From IMG/VR virus record IMGVR_UViG_3300018488_000078: a stretch of DNA of 11,494 nucleotides; one strand, written 5' to 3'. Shown here in pieces: positions 657 to 6,613 of the stretch (position 1 is the stretch's first letter; each line of letters starts with the position of its first letter). A model generated the notes under the pieces. The model saw nothing but the letters and a program-made list of their open reading frames with translations. It had not been told where the DNA came from and ran no database searches. This DNA is from a virus (lineage: Duplodnaviria; Heunggongvirae; Uroviricota; Caudoviricetes). Made by a program: the position numbers and the translations under genes.

Positions 657-1580
657 TCGCCCTCCTGAGAGACGGGATTTACGTGCATCCAGTGCATCAC
701 GCATAACGGTGATCGCATCGGTGCTGTTGACAAGTTCATCAGCCAGTCCGGCATCAATGGCCTCCTGACCGCTGTACACTGCAGCCTCGGTATCCAGCAC
801 AGCCTGCACGGACAGGCCGGTATATGCCGACACCTTCTGCGCAAACATCCGGCGGGTTGCGTCCATCCGGGACTGCAGTGTCTCCCGGACGTCATCCGGA
901 AGATGGCTGTAGGGGTTGCCATCCACCTTATGGCTGCCGCTGTAAATCAGCGTGATTTCCACACCCTGTTTCTCCAGCGCAGCACCGTAATTACTGTGAG
1001 CCATCATGACGCCGATGGAGCCTGTCCGGGCGGTCTGCGTGACCAGACGCCGGGAGGCGGCACTAGCAAGCAACTGACCTGCACTGCAGTTCATGTCGTT
1101 GGCAAGCGCCCATACCGGTTTTATGTCACGCACACGGGCGATGATGTCAGCGCAGTCAAATGCCCCCGCCACCATCCCGCCGGGCGTGTCCATATCGAGC
1201 AGAATGCCGTCCACCATCGGGTCGCTGGCAGCCTGTTGCAGACGGGCGATAATGCCGTTGTAACCGGTCATCCCCGAATACGGCTGCAGCGCTCGCGTCC
1301 GACTGACCAGCGTGCCGGACACCGGCAGCACGGCGATGCCGTTCATGACCTGATAACTGCGGGCCTGTCGTGGTCCGTCATCATCAACGGATAACGCCAG
1401 CGCCGCGGGTGCCTCTCCGGCAGTCAGGCTGTCGCCGGATACCGCATCCGTCAGGCGGCTGATCCCAAGCTGGCCTGCAAGCGCACAAAAGAAAACCCGC
1501 GCATAGGCGGGTTCAAGCATCAGCGGCTCATTAAAGGCCATACTGGCAATATGCGGGAGATTACGCAGCTCTGCTGTCAC
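261..1580 (-). CDS. C: Capsid assembly protease gpC (S49/ClpP-like prohead protease), lambda-type
   Basis: 439-codon frame from GTG at 1578-1580 with GAGGAGGAG just upstream. Translation VTAELRNLPHIASMAFNEPLMLEPAYARVFF...DAVNDLLNTPV has the length and sequence I recall for lambda gpC. It overlaps the 3' end of the B frame by 20 nt, the lambda arrangement. The ORF-track extension up to 1715 is a read-through of the upstream frame and is not used. Confidence 0.9.
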   Translation of the reverse strand: MTAELRNLPHIASMAFNEPLMLEPAYARVFFCALAGQLGISRLTDAVSGDSLTAGEAPAALALSVDDDGPRQARSYQVMNGIAVLPVSGTLVSRTRALQPYSGMTGYNGIIARLQQAASDPMVDGILLDMDTPGGMVAGAFDCADIIARVRDIKPVWALANDMNCSAGQLLASAASRRLVTQTARTGSIGVMMAHSNYGAALEKQGVEITLIYSGSHKVDGNPYSHLPDDVRETLQSRMDATRRMFAQKVSAYTGLSVQAVLDTEAAVYSGQEAIDAGLADELVNSTDAITVMRDALDARKSRLSGGRMTKETQSTTVSATASQADVTDVVPATEGENASAAQPDVNAQITAAVAAENSRIMGILNCEEAHGREEQARVLAETPGMTVETARRILAAAPQSAQARSDTALDRLMQGAPAPLAAGNPASDAVNDLLNTPV

Positions 1581-2334
1581 TCTTCTCCTCCTCTGTTGAT
1601 TGTCGCAGCCCGGATTCAAATGCCGCAGCCGCCCAGGCGGGCGGTTTAAGACCGGCTGCACGGCGCTCCATCGTTTCACGGACCTGCTGGGCAAAAATTT
1701 CCTGATAGTCGTCACCGCGTTTTGCGCACTCTTTCTCGTAGGTACTCAGTCCGGCTTCTATCAGCATCACCGCTTCCTGTACTTCTTTCAGACCATCGAT
1801 GGCCATACGACCGGAGCCTATCCAGTCGCAGTTCCCCCAGGCACTTCGGGCTTCCTGAAAACTGAAGCGCGCTTTTGAAGGTAACGTCACCACGCGGCGA
1901 GCGATGGCCTCTTCCAGCCAGCACAGAAACATCTGGCTCGCCTGACGGGATGCGACGAATTTTCGCCGCCCCATAAAGTACGCCCACGACTCGTTCGCAC
2001 TGGCCCGTGCCGTGGAGTAGCTCATCTGGGCGTAATTCCGGGAAAGCTGCTCATACGAGACACCCAGTCCGGCAGCGATATACCGCAACAGTGACTGCTC
2101 AAACACGGAGTAGCCGTTATCCGTGTCCTGAGCCGTCTGCAGGTTCAGTGAGTCCCCCGGCATCAGGTGCGGCACTTTTGCGCCTCCCAGCCGGACCGGT
2201 GCTGCGGCGTAATACGCGGCAATTTCACCAATCCAGCCGGTCAGCCTTTCCCGCTGCTCCTGACTGTTCGCGCCCAGAATAAAATCCATCGCTGACTGCG
2301 TATCCAGCTCACTCTCAATGGTGGCGGCATACAT
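1561..2334 (-). pseudogene. B: Portal protein gpB, C-terminal 257 codons only; N-terminal half absent (truncated gene)
   Basis: Translation MYAATIESELDTQSAMDFILGANSQEQRERL...AFESGLRQSTEEEKSDSRAA matches the C-terminal part of lambda gpB as recalled; lambda B is roughly twice this length. Upstream of 2334 the frame runs only 11 more codons (ILFFSCLFIKA, AT-rich) before a stop at 2368-2370, then non-coding repeat DNA. Confidence 0.85.
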
Positions 2335-2469
2335 CGCCTTTATGAAAAGACAGGAAAAAATAAAATTTAAAAACAGTACATTACGAATGCTCAGACCTAT
2401 CGTTTAAAGGAGTCGCAATACACACTGCAATACACGATTATTTATAAGATGAGCGGCATCCGTCATAAA

Positions 2470-2708
2470 GCTGGTGGATGCTTTTTCTATGCATATATGC
2501 ACAGTTTTAGTGGGCGTTAATGTCGATATAGGGATCCCCATATCGAGATTGGATACCTGGCTTTTTTCCGGTTAACCTTTAATCAGGCTGGTGGGCTTTA
2601 CCTGTTTTGTATGAGTGGTCATCATGACCATGTCATAACAAAAACCCCATATTCGTGGTTTTTCTGTGTCGGGCTATTCTGTCGTTGCTGTGCTGATTTG
2701 GCTGGTGG
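2470..2708 (+). repeat. Cluster of three Chi octamers (5'-GCTGGTGG-3') at 2470-2477, 2587-2594 and 2701-2708, same strand, spaced 117 and 114 bp
   Basis: Octamers read directly from the sequence; the second and third share the 12-mer GGCTGGTGGGCT. They lie in non-coding DNA between ORF93 and the truncated B gene. Confidence 0.85.
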
Positions 2709-2763
2709 GCTGAATCATCATTACGGCGATGCAGCTATGTAGACGTTCCGGCCTCCTCAAATT

Positions 2764-2925
2764 GAGGATTGTGGAAGAATCAATGGGTTAGTCTTACTTT
2801 CCCGACATCCCCCAATGGGGGTTTTCGAAACAATCAATAGCTTAGGCTTACTTCCCCGATTTCCTGCATTGCAGGTTTTCGAAATAATCAATGGGTTAGG
2901 CCATCGTGCAATTTTGCACTTTGCC
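2764..2925. repeat. Three tandem units of about 54 bp, each carrying a perfect IHF consensus (WATCAANNNNTTR) at 2768-2780, 2822-2834 and 2876-2888
   Basis: AATCAATGGGTTA, AATCAATAGCTTA and AATCAATGGGTTA sit exactly 54 bp apart; units 2 and 3 also share GGTTTTCGAAA immediately upstream. A palindrome CCTCAAATTGAGG (2745-2757) precedes the array. Confidence 0.7.
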
Positions 2926-3149
2926 AGCCAGCGCAATGTCGCGTTATCAGTCCTCGGATGTGAGGGATGTAGCCAGCTTTTCCCCCAGTGGGGGATATCC
3001 AGCACCGACGGCTTAACTGTGCGTGCCAGCACAAGGTAGCCTTGAACTACTTACTGCATCCCATCTTACAGGCCGTGCCTTCCTGCTTAACTTTTTGCAA
3101 TGCAACAAGTCAGCCAGCGCAATTTTGCGTTATCGGGAATATCAGCAAG

Positions 3150-3431
3150 TTACCGCCGCAATCGTTCCGGCTTCTTCCACTGGTAAGTATTTTTCGCGCT
3201 CTCCCTCCGTTGTTGAGAACGGCGACGATATGCCAGCAACTCAAGGACTCTTGTTCGTATGTTGCGCATATCCACGCCGTTAAGCTCAATACCGTCACGG
3301 CGCATCACCTCAGCCACTACACGCACATAATTATCTGCGGTCACGCTGTCCGGCTGCGTGGCCTGTTCGTCATGCTGCTTGCTGATTCCACAAGCACGGC
3401 GGATTAATCGCAGTATTTCGGATTCAGTCAT
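3150..3431 (-). CDS. Hypothetical protein, 93 aa, in the position where a large terminase gene would follow the small terminase
   Basis: ATG at 3429-3431 starts 11 nt after the TerS stop; weak Shine-Dalgarno, so translation may be coupled. Product MTESEILRLIRRACGISKQHDEQATQPDSVTADNYV... has no recognisable domain by eye. It is far too short to be a large terminase. Confidence 0.45.
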   Translation of the reverse strand: MTESEILRLIRRACGISKQHDEQATQPDSVTADNYVRVVAEVMRRDGIELNGVDMRNIRTRVLELLAYRRRSQQRRESAKNTYQWKKPERLRR

Positions 3432-3442
3432 AGCGTACTACG

Positions 3443-3985
3443 TTACTTATCTTTATTCGGCTGCAACTTATCCGGTACGTTTCCGGCAGTTTCCATCAGA
3501 TAATCGGACAGCATCAGCGGTATGTTTTCGTCAAGTTTTGCGCATGCGTTACAGGCTCTGATAACTTCTTTTTTCAGTCCATCCAGCATAGACGGCTTCA
3601 TGTCGGGAAACTTCCTTGTCATGGCAAGCGGCAGGCTGTCCATGATTGAAGAAATCTGACTCGCCAATTTTGAAAGCACGTATATACAAAACGCTGTATC
3701 AATAACGTCGCCGCGTTCGCGCTCGTTTTTAAGCTCCTGCGCCTCTGCCTGTGCTGTCAGCAATCTGATCCTGACTCGTAGGAGTTCATCATCATCAATC
3801 TCGCCTTTGTCGTCTGTAATCTGGTTAATTGCATTGCTAACCCGATTGTCTATTACGCTGGCAACATCATAAAACGCCTCGCGGCCTTTACGTTCAACGG
3901 GAGTCACTCCCCACTTGTCGAACGCTGTCGCACTTACACGGCAGCTTTGCGCCATGTTTTTTTTGTTCATCAGGTGCGATTTCAT
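3443..3985 (-). CDS. Terminase small subunit, Nu1-like, with divergent N-terminal (DNA-binding) region
   Basis: C-terminal two thirds align by eye to lambda Nu1: RLLTAQAEAQELKNERERGDVIDTAFCIYVLSKLASQISSIMDSLPLAMTRKFPDMK versus lambda RLTRAQADAQELKNARDSAEVVETAFCTFVLSRIAGEIASILDGLPLSVQRRFPELE. The N-terminal ~70 residues differ. Start chosen at ATG 3983-3985 (GGGGA 6 nt upstream); GTG at 3995-3997 and ATGs at 3968-3970 and 3953-3955 are alternatives. Confidence 0.85.
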   Translation of the reverse strand: MKSHLMNKKNMAQSCRVSATAFDKWGVTPVERKGREAFYDVASVIDNRVSNAINQITDDKGEIDDDELLRVRIRLLTAQAEAQELKNERERGDVIDTAFCIYVLSKLASQISSIMDSLPLAMTRKFPDMKPSMLDGLKKEVIRACNACAKLDENIPLMLSDYLMETAGNVPDKLQPNKDK

Positions 3986-4186: not shown

Positions 4187-4570
4187 TCAACCAATCAGCT
4201 TATAGCGACCATCCCGTGCATTGCGGCGTACACGCTCAATCTTGAGGCATAGCGCCGCATCTGGCTTTTTTGGGACAGGTACGCGGCAATATTCAGAAGC
4301 GCGAGGAATATTATTTATCCAGTCGATCACTTCACTTAAATACCAGGCCTTACGCCCTTCCGTAACCTGCACACGCTCCGGGAACTCTCCACTAGCCTCA
4401 AGGTTTAGCAGTGTACGACGACTCAGGGTTGTAATTTCCATCACCTGATTCATATCAACAAGGCGCTCGCTTAAACACATTTTGTCAGCGATAGCTTTTA
4501 ATTCCTCTACAGCTGGATTCGGGTACATCATTTCGGCAATTGGCTTAAGGTCATTGTAATCATTCTGCAT
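4187..4570 (-). CDS. AlpA-family (MerR-like HTH) DNA-binding regulator with ~40-residue N-terminal extension
   Basis: ATG 4568-4570 with GGGGGA upstream. Segment VMEITTLSRRTLLNLEASGEFPERVQVTEGRKAWYLSEVIDWINN fits the AlpA/prophage CP4-57 regulator HTH pattern. Stop at 4187-4189 lies 26 bp from cosQ. Confidence 0.65.
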   Translation of the reverse strand: MQNDYNDLKPIAEMMYPNPAVEELKAIADKMCLSERLVDMNQVMEITTLSRRTLLNLEASGEFPERVQVTEGRKAWYLSEVIDWINNIPRASEYCRVPVPKKPDAALCLKIERVRRNARDGRYKLIG

Positions 4571-4932: not shown

Positions 4933-5979
4933 TTAGCCAATGCGAACGGTAACAAAACGATTGATGCGGGCCGGTATTGGCTGTGGTGCTGAATGTGTCT
5001 GCACATATTCAATAGCCGGATCACCAGGCACAATATAGTTTTTCGGTGCAAGTTCGGCTTTAGTCAGCCCCATTCGGATTAGCTCCGGATCCTGAATACC
5101 GCCATAGGCGACAATCCCCTGAAGAGCCGTATTGCCAAGCACCATCAAATCAGGATCAAGGAAATGTTTTTCTGTTCCGTCCTCGTCGGTATAACGTCCG
5201 CTGTAAACAACAATCGCAACATCGCCCATATACCCTTTAAAACTCACCGAATCACCAAGGTCTTTAAGGGCCGTTTCCAGTTCGGAATTAGAACCACGAC
5301 GGGTATCCAAAGCCTCTTTTATCGCTCTGAATGAACGGTATTTCTTCCATACATTACCACCCATAATGATGATATTAGTGACGCCCTCACTAAATTCTGC
5401 GTAGCTCTCAATATCATCATTTGGATCAAAAGTTTCTTTATCCTTACCTGACCACTCAGTACCGCCAGACTGAGTGATGATATTTTGTGGTTTTATATTC
5501 CAGTCCAGCTCATAACGTTCAATACCATCGCCCTCAATGATATTTTTCCCCGTTGTGATTGCCTGAACAGCAAGCCATTCAATACGTGCACGAATAGCTT
5601 TAGCCTGATTTACAATCGCCTGTTTAACTTTAATATTACGCGCCCCAAAAGCATTGTATTGCTCAGGTGACACACCAGCAGGGCGCACAGCTAACTTATT
5701 TGGATCAATGCTGCTTTTCGGCTTCATATAACCTGGACGAATTGTTTTTGATTCGTATCCCTCATCTCGTGAAACTTTACTGCCCACCATAGGAGAGCAA
5801 AACGCCGCGATCGGGATATTTGGATCGTCGATCGTATCAAGAATAATGTCTCTCGATTCAAACATTACCGAGCGAGTGAAAAACAAACTGGTAAACAACG
5901 CATTTAATTTTTTTTGCACATCTTCAGCATTAGCCACCTGCACAAGCTGTGTAGGCGAATATAAATCAACCATACTCAT
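4933..5979 (-). CDS. Major capsid protein, lambda gpE family, divergent
   Basis: Shared blocks with lambda gpE as recalled: NIITQSGGTEWSGKDKETFDPNDDIESYAEF versus NITQSGGTEWSKRDKSTYDPTDDIEAYA, and LDTRRGSNSELETA in both. N-terminus MSMVDLYSPTQ parallels lambda MSMYTTAQ. ATG 5977-5979 abuts the GAGG motif, so the ATG at 5971-5973 (6-nt spacer) may be the real start. ORF-track extension to 6060 is not used. Confidence 0.85.
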   Translation of the reverse strand: MSMVDLYSPTQLVQVANAEDVQKKLNALFTSLFFTRSVMFESRDIILDTIDDPNIPIAAFCSPMVGSKVSRDEGYESKTIRPGYMKPKSSIDPNKLAVRPAGVSPEQYNAFGARNIKVKQAIVNQAKAIRARIEWLAVQAITTGKNIIEGDGIERYELDWNIKPQNIITQSGGTEWSGKDKETFDPNDDIESYAEFSEGVTNIIIMGGNVWKKYRSFRAIKEALDTRRGSNSELETALKDLGDSVSFKGYMGDVAIVVYSGRYTDEDGTEKHFLDPDLMVLGNTALQGIVAYGGIQDPELIRMGLTKAELAPKNYIVPGDPAIEYVQTHSAPQPIPARINRFVTVRIG

Positions 5980-6144
5980 CCTCTTTACATTCATTACAAA
6001 TAATTGTGAATATATTCTATTACCGATGTCTGCTATGCGAATACATGCAACCAAGTGCAATGTTGTATAAAATATGCCGTAACAACTTCAGTGCTGATAA
6101 TTCGTGTTAATGTATTTACTTCCTTTGGTCGGGATTTATGTAGC

Positions 6145-6184
6145 ATGCCGGAAAATCTATTTTTTTCCGGCATCTTTTTGTTTG
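6145..6184 (+). terminator. Stem-loop (11-bp arms ATGCCGGAAAA / TTTTCCGGCAT, 7-nt loop) followed by CTTTTTGTTTG; terminator-like on the plus strand only
   Basis: Read directly: arms 6145-6155 and 6163-6173, T-tract 6174-6184. On the minus strand the hairpin is not followed by a U-tract. No plus-strand gene is annotated upstream, so its role is unclear. Confidence 0.35.
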
Positions 6185-6190
6185 CAGAAT

Positions 6191-6613
6191 TTAAAACGGT
6201 ATATTATCGCCGTACGGATCATCATTCCCCGACTGTTGTTTTGCCCTGTTCAGTGCGTCAGTGGCCTGCCCCTGCTGGCCTTTTTTGCCGCCCGGTCGCG
6301 CCGTTCGCGCACTGATTACGCTGTCTGCGATAACCTGCCAGCCCCGCCGCGTTTCGCCGTTCTGGCCTGTCCACTGGCTTACCTGCATGTTACCCGCCAC
6401 GCTCACCAGTTCGCCTTTGTGGTGTTTTGCCAGTGCGTCGGCCTGTCTGCCAAACGCCAGGACGGATAACCACATCGTCGCCGTTCCGTCATCTGCCTGG
6501 CTGCACGGCAGGGGAACCGCCATACTCGCCATCGCCATTTGTGTCCCTTTGCTGGTGGTCTTTAACTGCGGGTCAGCCACCAGCCGCCCGTAAGCCGCTA
6601 TCTGTGCTGTCAT
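6191..6613 (-). CDS. ssb: Single-stranded DNA-binding protein (SSB) with acidic C-terminal tail ending DNIPF
   Basis: ATG 6611-6613 overlaps the upstream stop (ATGA). Glycine/glutamine-rich linker and C-terminal ...DDPYGDNIPF resemble the E. coli SSB tip ...DDDIPF. Confidence 0.8.
   Translation of the reverse strand: MTAQIAAYGRLVADPQLKTTSKGTQMAMASMAVPLPCSQADDGTATMWLSVLAFGRQADALAKHHKGELVSVAGNMQVSQWTGQNGETRRGWQVIADSVISARTARPGGKKGQQGQATDALNRAKQQSGNDDPYGDNIPF

Follow-up and report, generated by a model that had tools for sequence, protein, structure and literature searches.

The window, by which we mean the whole stretch of 11,494 nt that was analysed, is identical to part of E. coli CFSAN029787 (NZ_CP011416, 3704822-3705922) and is an EcCICFT073-like Gram-negative PICI satellite of around 10 kb that sits in the portal gene of a lambdoid prophage; APEC 102026 likewise carries an identical element. 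A helper-embedded arrangement of PICIs that matches the window has been described by Tommasini, Mageeney and Williams, whose work covers 491 HE-PICIs (PMC10111431), and the satellite is related to EcCICFT073 (PMC6092414, PMC6739421). According to RefSeq annotation and Pfam, all satellite genes except YlcI/YnfO are encoded on the minus strand and, in the order of transcription, begin with the integrase, an AlpA-type HTH protein, a BRO-N protein, YlcI/YnfO (plus strand), an Icd-like protein, and DUF4222. These are followed by a D5_N/DUF5906 primase (7207-8961), an iteron origin, a small ORF, ssb, and the hairpin studied here, after which come the genes for a lambda-E-type capsid protein, a lambda-D-type decoration protein, a second AlpA-family protein, and a small terminase related to the C-terminus of Nu1. 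The annotation confirms the original prediction, made from the sequence alone, that the two genes flanking the hairpin (ssb and the capsid gene) both lie on the minus strand (Table 1). Neither PMC10111431 nor PMC6092414 nor PMC6739421 mentions a promoter, a terminator, or an RNA at the junction of the replication zone with the late zone.

The satellite is co-oriented with the portal gene, which is present as two annotated pseudogene halves (window 1561-2343; 16628-17461 of locus L001). In the late zone, the second AlpA-family HTH protein has 127 aa (window 4187-4570), and the "small terminase" encoded beside it (window 3443-3985) matches the C-terminal half of Nu1 alone (profile positions 80-162), a pair that recalls the Rpp/TerS packaging-redirection pair of EcCICFT073. 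Dense iterons in both orientations (GGTAGAGGG / CCCTCTACC) are found at 6967-7198, in the interval that separates the primase gene from the small ORF preceding ssb, and this array is presumed to be the replication origin of the satellite; in Cedecea and L039-L041, other iterons (ACGTGGTTCA; GTGAACAC) directly adjoin the terminator of the predicted small RNA described below. A sister satellite in E. coli IAI39 (L003 1507-4629) is inserted in the helper's major capsid gene and not in the portal gene, and at its far end, where the terS region would be, it carries a plus-strand TIR-domain gene (2505-3647) that is probably anti-phage defence cargo. EcCICFT073 itself (L137, E. coli CFT073; 12209-12462) has ssb, then the gene of a PerC-family regulator, and then an unlike intergenic region composed of a sense terminator (AGCCGGAGCAATCCGGCT-TTTTT), an adjoining bidirectional hairpin (AAAAGCCCGATAAG..CTTATCGGGCTTTTTTT), a TATAAT promoter, and, right before the first late gene, a 14-bp inverted repeat with a T-run that looks like a leader terminator or attenuator. 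Since this ssb-perC / capsid intergenic sequence differs, EcCICFT073 offers no direct test bed for the RNA predicted in the window.

Table 1. Coordinates of the hairpin, its neighbouring genes, and the predicted elements between them (window numbering).
Feature	Position	Strand	Remarks
Satellite major capsid gene (Phage_cap_E)	4933-5973	-	first late-zone gene; divergent from the predicted small RNA
Predicted capsid (late-zone) promoter: TTCGCA, 16 nt, TAGAAT	6014-6041	-	promoter scan
Direct repeats TTGC-N6-TTGC-N6-TCGC	6037-6060	- (capsid sense)	between the two divergent -10 elements
TATAAA, candidate -10 of the predicted small-RNA promoter	6066-6071	+	TATAAA in 13/16 representatives across genera
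Predicted small RNA, ~105 nt	6078-6184	+	5' end inferred from the -10-like element; positional homology with the covarying RNA
Conserved TGTTA core of the (A)UCUGUUAU motif	6105-6109	+	invariant columns T28, G29, T31, and A32 of the alignment
Mini-hairpin UUCC-UUUGGUC-GGGA with CU-rich segment	6120-6134	+	occupies the place of the CCUCC-loop hairpin (SL1) of other clades
Terminator hairpin ATGCCGGAAAA / loop TCTATTT / TTTTCCGGCAT	6145-6173	+	perfect 11-bp inverted repeat, 7-nt loop
T-tract	6174-6184	+	CTTTTTGTTT directly 3' of the stem
ssb	6191-6613	-	stop codon (6191-6193) 7 nt past the T-tract; outside the small-RNA module

Taken as a terminator, the hairpin is an element of an ordinary kind in which both the stem and the U-tract of an intrinsic (Rho-independent) terminator are present. 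Five of the 11 bp of its stem are G-C, and as plus-strand RNA it folds with -15.4 kcal/mol compared to -2.8 +/- 2.0 kcal/mol for dinucleotide shuffles (z -6.2), with none of 200 shuffles folding as well. On the plus strand the stem is followed by the U-tract CUUUUUGUUU with 8 U in 10 positions, the minus-strand counterpart of which is GCUACAUAAA; when read on the minus strand, the stem is preceded by an A-run (CAAACAAAAAG) and runs into GCUACAUAAAUCCC, which holds no U-tract. The same asymmetry is seen in all 14 representatives that we compared, with 5-7 T in the 8 nt of the tail on the plus strand and 0-3 on the other strand. Because the U-tract lies on the plus side alone, terminator geometry exists only for a plus-strand transcript, as had originally been proposed for this stem-loop and T-tract. 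A reading in which the hairpin acts on the minus strand, as a stem-loop stabilising the 3' end of the ssb transcript or as a weak terminator without U-tract next to an incidental plus-strand T-run, would draw on its position, starting 18 nt past the ssb stop codon, and on folding that is nearly as good on this strand (-14.5 kcal/mol, z -4.5). Against it, a U-tract is missing from the minus strand in every clade (0-3 U in the 8-nt tail), and with the comparative evidence presented below we regard this reading as very improbable.

Terminator-like sites are not rare in the window, where a simple but noisy scan returned 23 of them compared to 12.3 +/- 3.4 in shuffled sequence, and a single match in such a scan is weak, so the case for a site above chance rests on the comparison between loci. 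Two further plus-strand sites are worth recording in their own right. One, an 11-bp hairpin at 2455-2482 (GGCATCCGTCAT..GGTGGATGCT followed by TTTTCT), is strong and sits in the gene-free stretch 2344-3149 between the last ORF of the satellite and the portal fragment, near the expected attachment site or cos. The other, at 6257-6279 (GTCAGTGGCC..GCTGGC followed by CTTTTTTGCC), is antisense within ssb and retained by E. coli variants; the coding sequence probably gives rise to it as a by-product, since the site falls in the part of ssb that encodes the Gly/Lys/Gln-rich tail.

Within E. coli, 623 of 5426 complete genomes match the interval 5940-6230, and 366 of them do so over at least 80% of its length. 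At 86-95% identity, variants retain or even lengthen the T-run on the plus strand, and in those E. coli-clade variants that pass a strict scan for a perfect stem and a T-run, the stem core (GCCGGAAAA/TTTTCCGGC) shows no change, in contrast to a loop that differs in both sequence and length (5-8 nt). Among 134 related loci, all 69 distinct upstream variants keep the hairpin and 59 pass the strict scan; one of the ten that failed for the perfect stem, a minor E. coli variant (L002), has an A·C mismatch in the plus-strand stem that would be a G·U pair on the minus strand, a point in favour of the minus-strand reading. Conservation in the E. coli clade is high across the entire intergenic region, and E. 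coli sequences alone can therefore not separate the different hypotheses.

More distant relatives were found by a search with the capsid protein, so that they had not been selected for possessing a hairpin. This search yielded loci from Kluyvera, Superficieibacter, Cedecea, Kosakonia, metagenomes, and viral contigs, with intergenic regions that are 57% identical on average. Each distant clade has a GC hairpin with a T-run in the same orientation and with an unrelated stem sequence (e.g., GCGGGTC..GCCCGC, GGCGGGC..GCCCGCC, AACGGGCC..GGCCCGTT, or CAGCTCGC..GCGGCTG), and in every clade this terminal hairpin ends 99-133 nt past the TATAAA or its weaker equivalent. The order of elements is shared as well: The capsid start is followed by a conserved minus-strand -10 (GTGATAGCAT, with TAGAAT as the window version), then two or three TTGC boxes 10 bp apart, the plus-strand TATAAA, around 33 nt of variable sequence, a conserved (A)TCTGTTAT motif, a hairpin or CU-rich segment, and finally the GC hairpin with its T-run, the exception being Cedecea (L008) with a weak -10 and neither CU-rich segment nor hairpin at this place. 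The window conforms to this synteny, with the predicted RNA pointing away from the satellite capsid gene and adjoining the TTGC boxes. What lies past the terminator differs from clade to clade and can be ssb, a small membrane protein, ori iterons, a 119-aa protein, or proteins of 290-372 aa. Since the neighbouring gene changes and the hairpin is kept, the hairpin belongs to the capsid-promoter module and not to ssb, and its retention where ori iterons or unrelated genes replace ssb also speaks against a function on the minus strand. No phage match was obtained when the region and its Kluyvera version were compared by blastn in near and distant modes to 50,697 phage records, and no family of Rfam 15, C4 and isrK included, matched the window or any of seven related loci at E values up to 1. 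The small RNA predicted here appears to be an undescribed family that is specific to these satellites.

Structural selection is evident from the sister clades. A covariance model comprising an inner hairpin and the terminator (R1), built from five sequences, found exactly one element per locus in 13 loci (E values from 2e-32 to 0.011), always on the strand equivalent to the plus strand of the window. It also recovered 13 more viral contigs among candidates from a pattern scan, each with the element around 118 nt upstream of the satellite capsid gene and divergent from it. In alignments that were fitted to the R1 model, which favours structure, 99% of the paired cells are filled by pairing bases for 13 sequences and 96.6% for 21 distinct sequences, and 8 of 16 pairs show double compensatory changes, including six of the 8 pairs of the inner hairpin. 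None of 500 shuffles reached the observed covariation, and controls with slid partners pair at 33-63%. The inner hairpins of different clades are unlike in sequence and alike in fold (TGTTATTT/AAATAACA, TCTGTCGC/GCGACAGA, CTGTTAC/GTAACAG, or TTACTG/TGGTAA), and outside of the E. coli clade their loop displays an anti-Shine-Dalgarno-like CCUCC in nearly all sequences.

Folding energy does not discriminate between the strands of the whole element (-31.2 vs. -29.0 kcal/mol), and with these near-equal values we assign the strand from the G·U pairs and the U-tract. Around 16 G·U cells of the alignment would be C·A mismatches on the other strand, which together with the one-sided U-tract places the RNA on the plus strand of the window; the U·G pair found in 8 of 13 relatives' terminators is among them and would be a mismatch if the hairpin acted on the minus strand. 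The same data bear on the idea that the hairpin is a DNA site, i.e., an 11-bp inverted repeat bound by a dimeric protein or a part of the origin or packaging site. Its arms are indeed perfectly palindromic and an apparent regulator site, the TTGC boxes, is close by; yet the arm sequences are unrelated between clades while their pairing including G·U is preserved, which indicates selection on RNA, the loop varies between 5 and 8 nt within E. coli, and the origin iterons are located around 800 bp away. A DNA site is therefore hardly credible in our view, and a role of the hairpin as an origin or iteron element was rejected since the iterons are found in their own array and not at the hairpin.

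How far the sister-clade evidence extends to the window has to be considered with care. When E. coli-clade sequence was scanned with R1, the window element was not detected, and the homologous place holds only a 4-bp mini-hairpin, meaning that the inner hairpin is mostly lost in this clade. The covariation of the sister clades consequently transfers to the window only by synteny and short motifs. The distance from TATAAA to TGTTA is 33 nt both in the window and in locus L006, and given this spacing, the identical synteny, and the same order of CU-rich segment and terminator, we treat the window element as a diverged member of the covarying RNA family that has preserved its terminator best. The (A)UCUGUUAU motif is the single short motif in the body of the RNA that is common to all clades. 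In E. coli variant 2, the mini-hairpin reads UCCC...GGGA, with a U·G pair changed to C-G. A long-range helix between 6091-6100 and 6136-6146 of the window RNA was rejected as a candidate; variant 2 breaks two of its pairs without compensation.

We then consider where an RNA ending at the hairpin would start. The candidate -10 element TATAAA is replaced by degenerate versions in three clades (TGTAGA, TGCAATATT, and TATGTA), and the associated -35 matches 2-3 of 6 consensus positions, so that this promoter went unreported by a consensus promoter scan. In several clades, a second plus-strand -10-like element (GATAAT) overlaps the -10 of the capsid gene, and the TATAAA might alternatively belong to the capsid promoter as one of its upstream elements. 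The position of the capsid -10 itself (6019-6014) is conserved and occupied by (GTGA)TAGCAT or TACCAT in other clades. The inferred RNA start at around 6078 is separated from the capsid start codon (5973) by 105 nt and lies past the predicted capsid promoter; from there, the RNA would run divergently from the capsid mRNA without overlap and be antisense only to read-through from ssb. It had been suggested that the hairpin may terminate a small antisense RNA covering the 5' region of the capsid gene, and our results favour one half of this idea, a small plus-strand RNA that ends at the hairpin, and speak against the other, coverage of the capsid 5' region, because the candidate start is on the far side of the capsid promoter. 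The sole consensus-passing plus-strand promoter-like site that could give rise to an RNA antisense to the capsid 5' region lies within the capsid gene (5609-5637). We rejected the long antisense RNA that would begin there: Both hexamers decay at synonymous sites in other clades, and this lack of conservation speaks against the 5' region of the capsid gene being covered by a conserved antisense RNA.

The predicted RNA would be non-coding. The absence of a credible plus-strand ORF upstream of the hairpin, already stated in the original prediction, holds upon closer inspection since the plus-strand ORFs at 6055-6315 and 6104-6469 run through the terminator and are antisense to ssb. A minus-strand ORF of 46 aa (6033-6173) was likewise discarded as a small protein (its start lies within the hairpin, and E. 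coli variant 2 has lost the ATG), and so was a very short minus-strand ORF that follows GGAGG in Kluyvera and L052 (M(R)TI(T/A)DI*), the start codon or frame of which is absent in L045 and L007. In the compared loci, no conserved ORF was found on either strand of the small-RNA region.

The space between the two divergent promoters is occupied by TTGC boxes, with TTGC-N6-TTGC at 6047-6060 and a third box, TCGC, at 6037-6040 on the minus strand; they overlap the spacer and -35 region of the predicted plus-strand promoter. The motif is present in 132 of 137 loci and, except for the two CFT073 loci (L136 and L137), with one match at the expected position upstream of the satellite capsid gene, and clades other than E. 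coli have three perfect TTGC copies. We presume from this pattern that the boxes are a site for a shared regulator. TTGC-N6-TTGC is the recognition motif of lambda CII (PMC4651098), and one of the CII-dependent promoters of lambda, paQ, also yields an antisense RNA that restrains late genes (PMC4651098). The motif is common to the satellite boxes and the CII-dependent promoters pRE, pI, and paQ, and the helpers of these satellites are lambdoid phages. The two differ in the number of tetrads, which is three in the satellite boxes and two in CII-dependent promoters, and in their placement. At pRE, around 13 nt separate the last tetrad from the -10. The corresponding distance to the predicted capsid -10 is 17 nt in the window and the E. 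coli clade and 27 nt in other clades, so that the repeat of a CII-activated promoter is found here and its pRE-like spacing is not. With a spacing unlike that of pRE, a CII-like activator acting at the satellite boxes is a prediction that we view as a lead and not as a result.

Searches for targets of the predicted RNA gave no clear candidate. No exact complementarity of at least 9-10 nt recurred at translation starts in the 19-kb satellite-plus-helper locus and 23 related loci, and duplexfold comparisons to 25 annotated translation starts produced long, implausible duplexes, the best of which (-36.2 kcal/mol) is within the range of shuffled sequences (mean -26.6, minimum -41.2). Extending duplexfold to all ORF starts without restriction gave no useful signal, and pairing with the capsid leader did not exceed that of shuffles (z from -2.3 to +0.2). 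In L052, L178, and L201, 9-11 nt of the linker between the hairpins (UAAAAAAUCGA; RNA positions around 70-80) have a complementary stretch in the leader of the capsid mRNA, immediately 5' of its Shine-Dalgarno sequence; this complementarity is absent from other clades. The only certain partners of the RNA are minus-strand transcripts that read through from ssb or, in the embedded configuration, from the helper's late operon, since these are perfectly complementary to it.

These results have to be weighed with regard to a simpler explanation in which the hairpin is only an insulator. It would stop stray plus-strand transcription, arising from divergent firing near the capsid promoter or from read-through of plus-strand accessory genes at the far end, from running antisense into the ssb/primase operon, and the resulting RNA would have no function of its own. 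Orientation and conservation of the hairpin fit this explanation equally well, the failure to find targets and the degenerate inner hairpin of the E. coli clade are in line with it, and some relatives carry plus-strand cargo upstream, such as the TIR-domain gene of IAI39. An insulator has no need, however, for an RNA body under structural selection as observed in the sister clades, where six of the 8 inner-hairpin pairs covary and the CCUCC loop and UCUGUUAU are conserved, nor for a distance between TATAAA and terminator that stays within 99-133 nt. We thus regard insulation as the sole function as rather unlikely, and we note that the terminator of a small RNA is compatible with blocking plus-strand read-in towards the replication genes, the second role originally suggested for the hairpin, which it may have as well.

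Taken together, we predict that a plus-strand RNA ends at the hairpin, and consider this likely. The more specific interpretation that hairpin and T-tract form the Rho-independent terminator of a non-coding RNA of around 105 nt in the control region of the PICI late zone is in our judgement probably correct. Whether this RNA is a dedicated regulator is a different matter; it may well be one, though we would not call this probable. In the mechanism that we envisage, two back-to-back promoters would share the TTGC boxes, with the leftward, minus-strand promoter driving the genes for capsid, decoration protein, AlpA-like protein, and TerS and the rightward, plus-strand promoter making the small RNA from its -10-like element. 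The terminator would set the U-tailed 3' end of this RNA and prevent antisense transcription from reaching ssb and the gene for the primase. Switching from one promoter to the other, which might compete or alternate, would be brought about by a protein that occupies the boxes, and the small RNA would base-pair via its single-stranded motif (UCUGUUAU; GUGUUAAU in the window) and the CU-rich or CCUCC segment with late-gene mRNAs of satellite or helper, or with the complementary read-through transcripts from ssb. The most far-reaching version of this model, which we put forward tentatively and hold to be a good deal less than probable, is that of an unrecognised PICI small-RNA family at the boundary of replication and late zones: Its promoter would share CII-like boxes with the capsid gene, the RNA would expose an anti-Shine-Dalgarno (CCUCC or CU-rich) segment, and together with the box-binding protein, possibly a helper factor, it would form a switch that times or restrains capsid and late genes of the satellite and/or the helper.

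Gram-negative PICIs are common and move virulence and defence genes, and the control of their late genes as described consists of AlpA and passive read-through from the helper (PMC10111431, PMC6092414, PMC6739421). If the model is true, the RNA would be the first RNA regulator assigned to the capsid/late part of a PICI, and these elements would become the second satellite family known to have its own base-pairing small RNA after PLE, which encodes SviR. The conserved TTGC boxes furthermore suggest how a satellite might sense its lambdoid helper. If the RNA is inert, the finding reduces to an ordinary insulating terminator.

Several known RNAs invite comparison with the one predicted here. The OOP RNA of phage lambda is an antisense RNA of 77 nt that is transcribed from a promoter of its own, pO, ends at its own terminator, is directed against the rightward early operon, and overlaps the 3' end of cII. 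Like OOP, the predicted satellite RNA is short, would have its own promoter and intrinsic terminator between two genes, would be directed against a one-directional operon, and could pair with read-through mRNA. In contrast to OOP, its end at the T-tract (6184) leaves 7 nt to the ssb stop codon, and it would therefore overlap no coding sequence, including that of the convergent gene, and it differs from OOP by the lack of sequence similarity and by its position relative to regulators.

Among satellites, PLE of Vibrio cholerae encodes the SviR RNA, which targets ribosome-binding regions and down-regulates a capsid-morphogenesis gene of the helper (bioRxiv 10.1101/2022.04.08.487710). SviR and the predicted RNA are both small RNAs of satellites, and both combine a promoter that is conserved (a candidate promoter in the latter case) with conserved segments resembling seeds and with an intrinsic terminator. 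They differ in length (210 nt for SviR vs. around 105-125 nt), are unrelated in sequence, host, and satellite family, and SviR is flanked by inverted repeats; moreover, expression and targets of SviR have been shown by experiment, whereas both are predicted for the satellite RNA. Immunity RNAs of the P4 CI, P1/P7 C4, and IsrK type are reported to occur in the Bro zone of certain Gram-negative PICIs (PMC10111431) and are, similarly, small regulatory RNAs of enterobacterial satellites or phages that pair at or near ribosome-binding regions. Unlike these RNAs, which belong to the Bro zone and are processed from a sense leader, the RNA predicted here would be a divergent primary transcript at the boundary of replication and late zones. 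It belongs to none of OOP, paQ RNA, and SviR, and these three are its closest analogues by logic.
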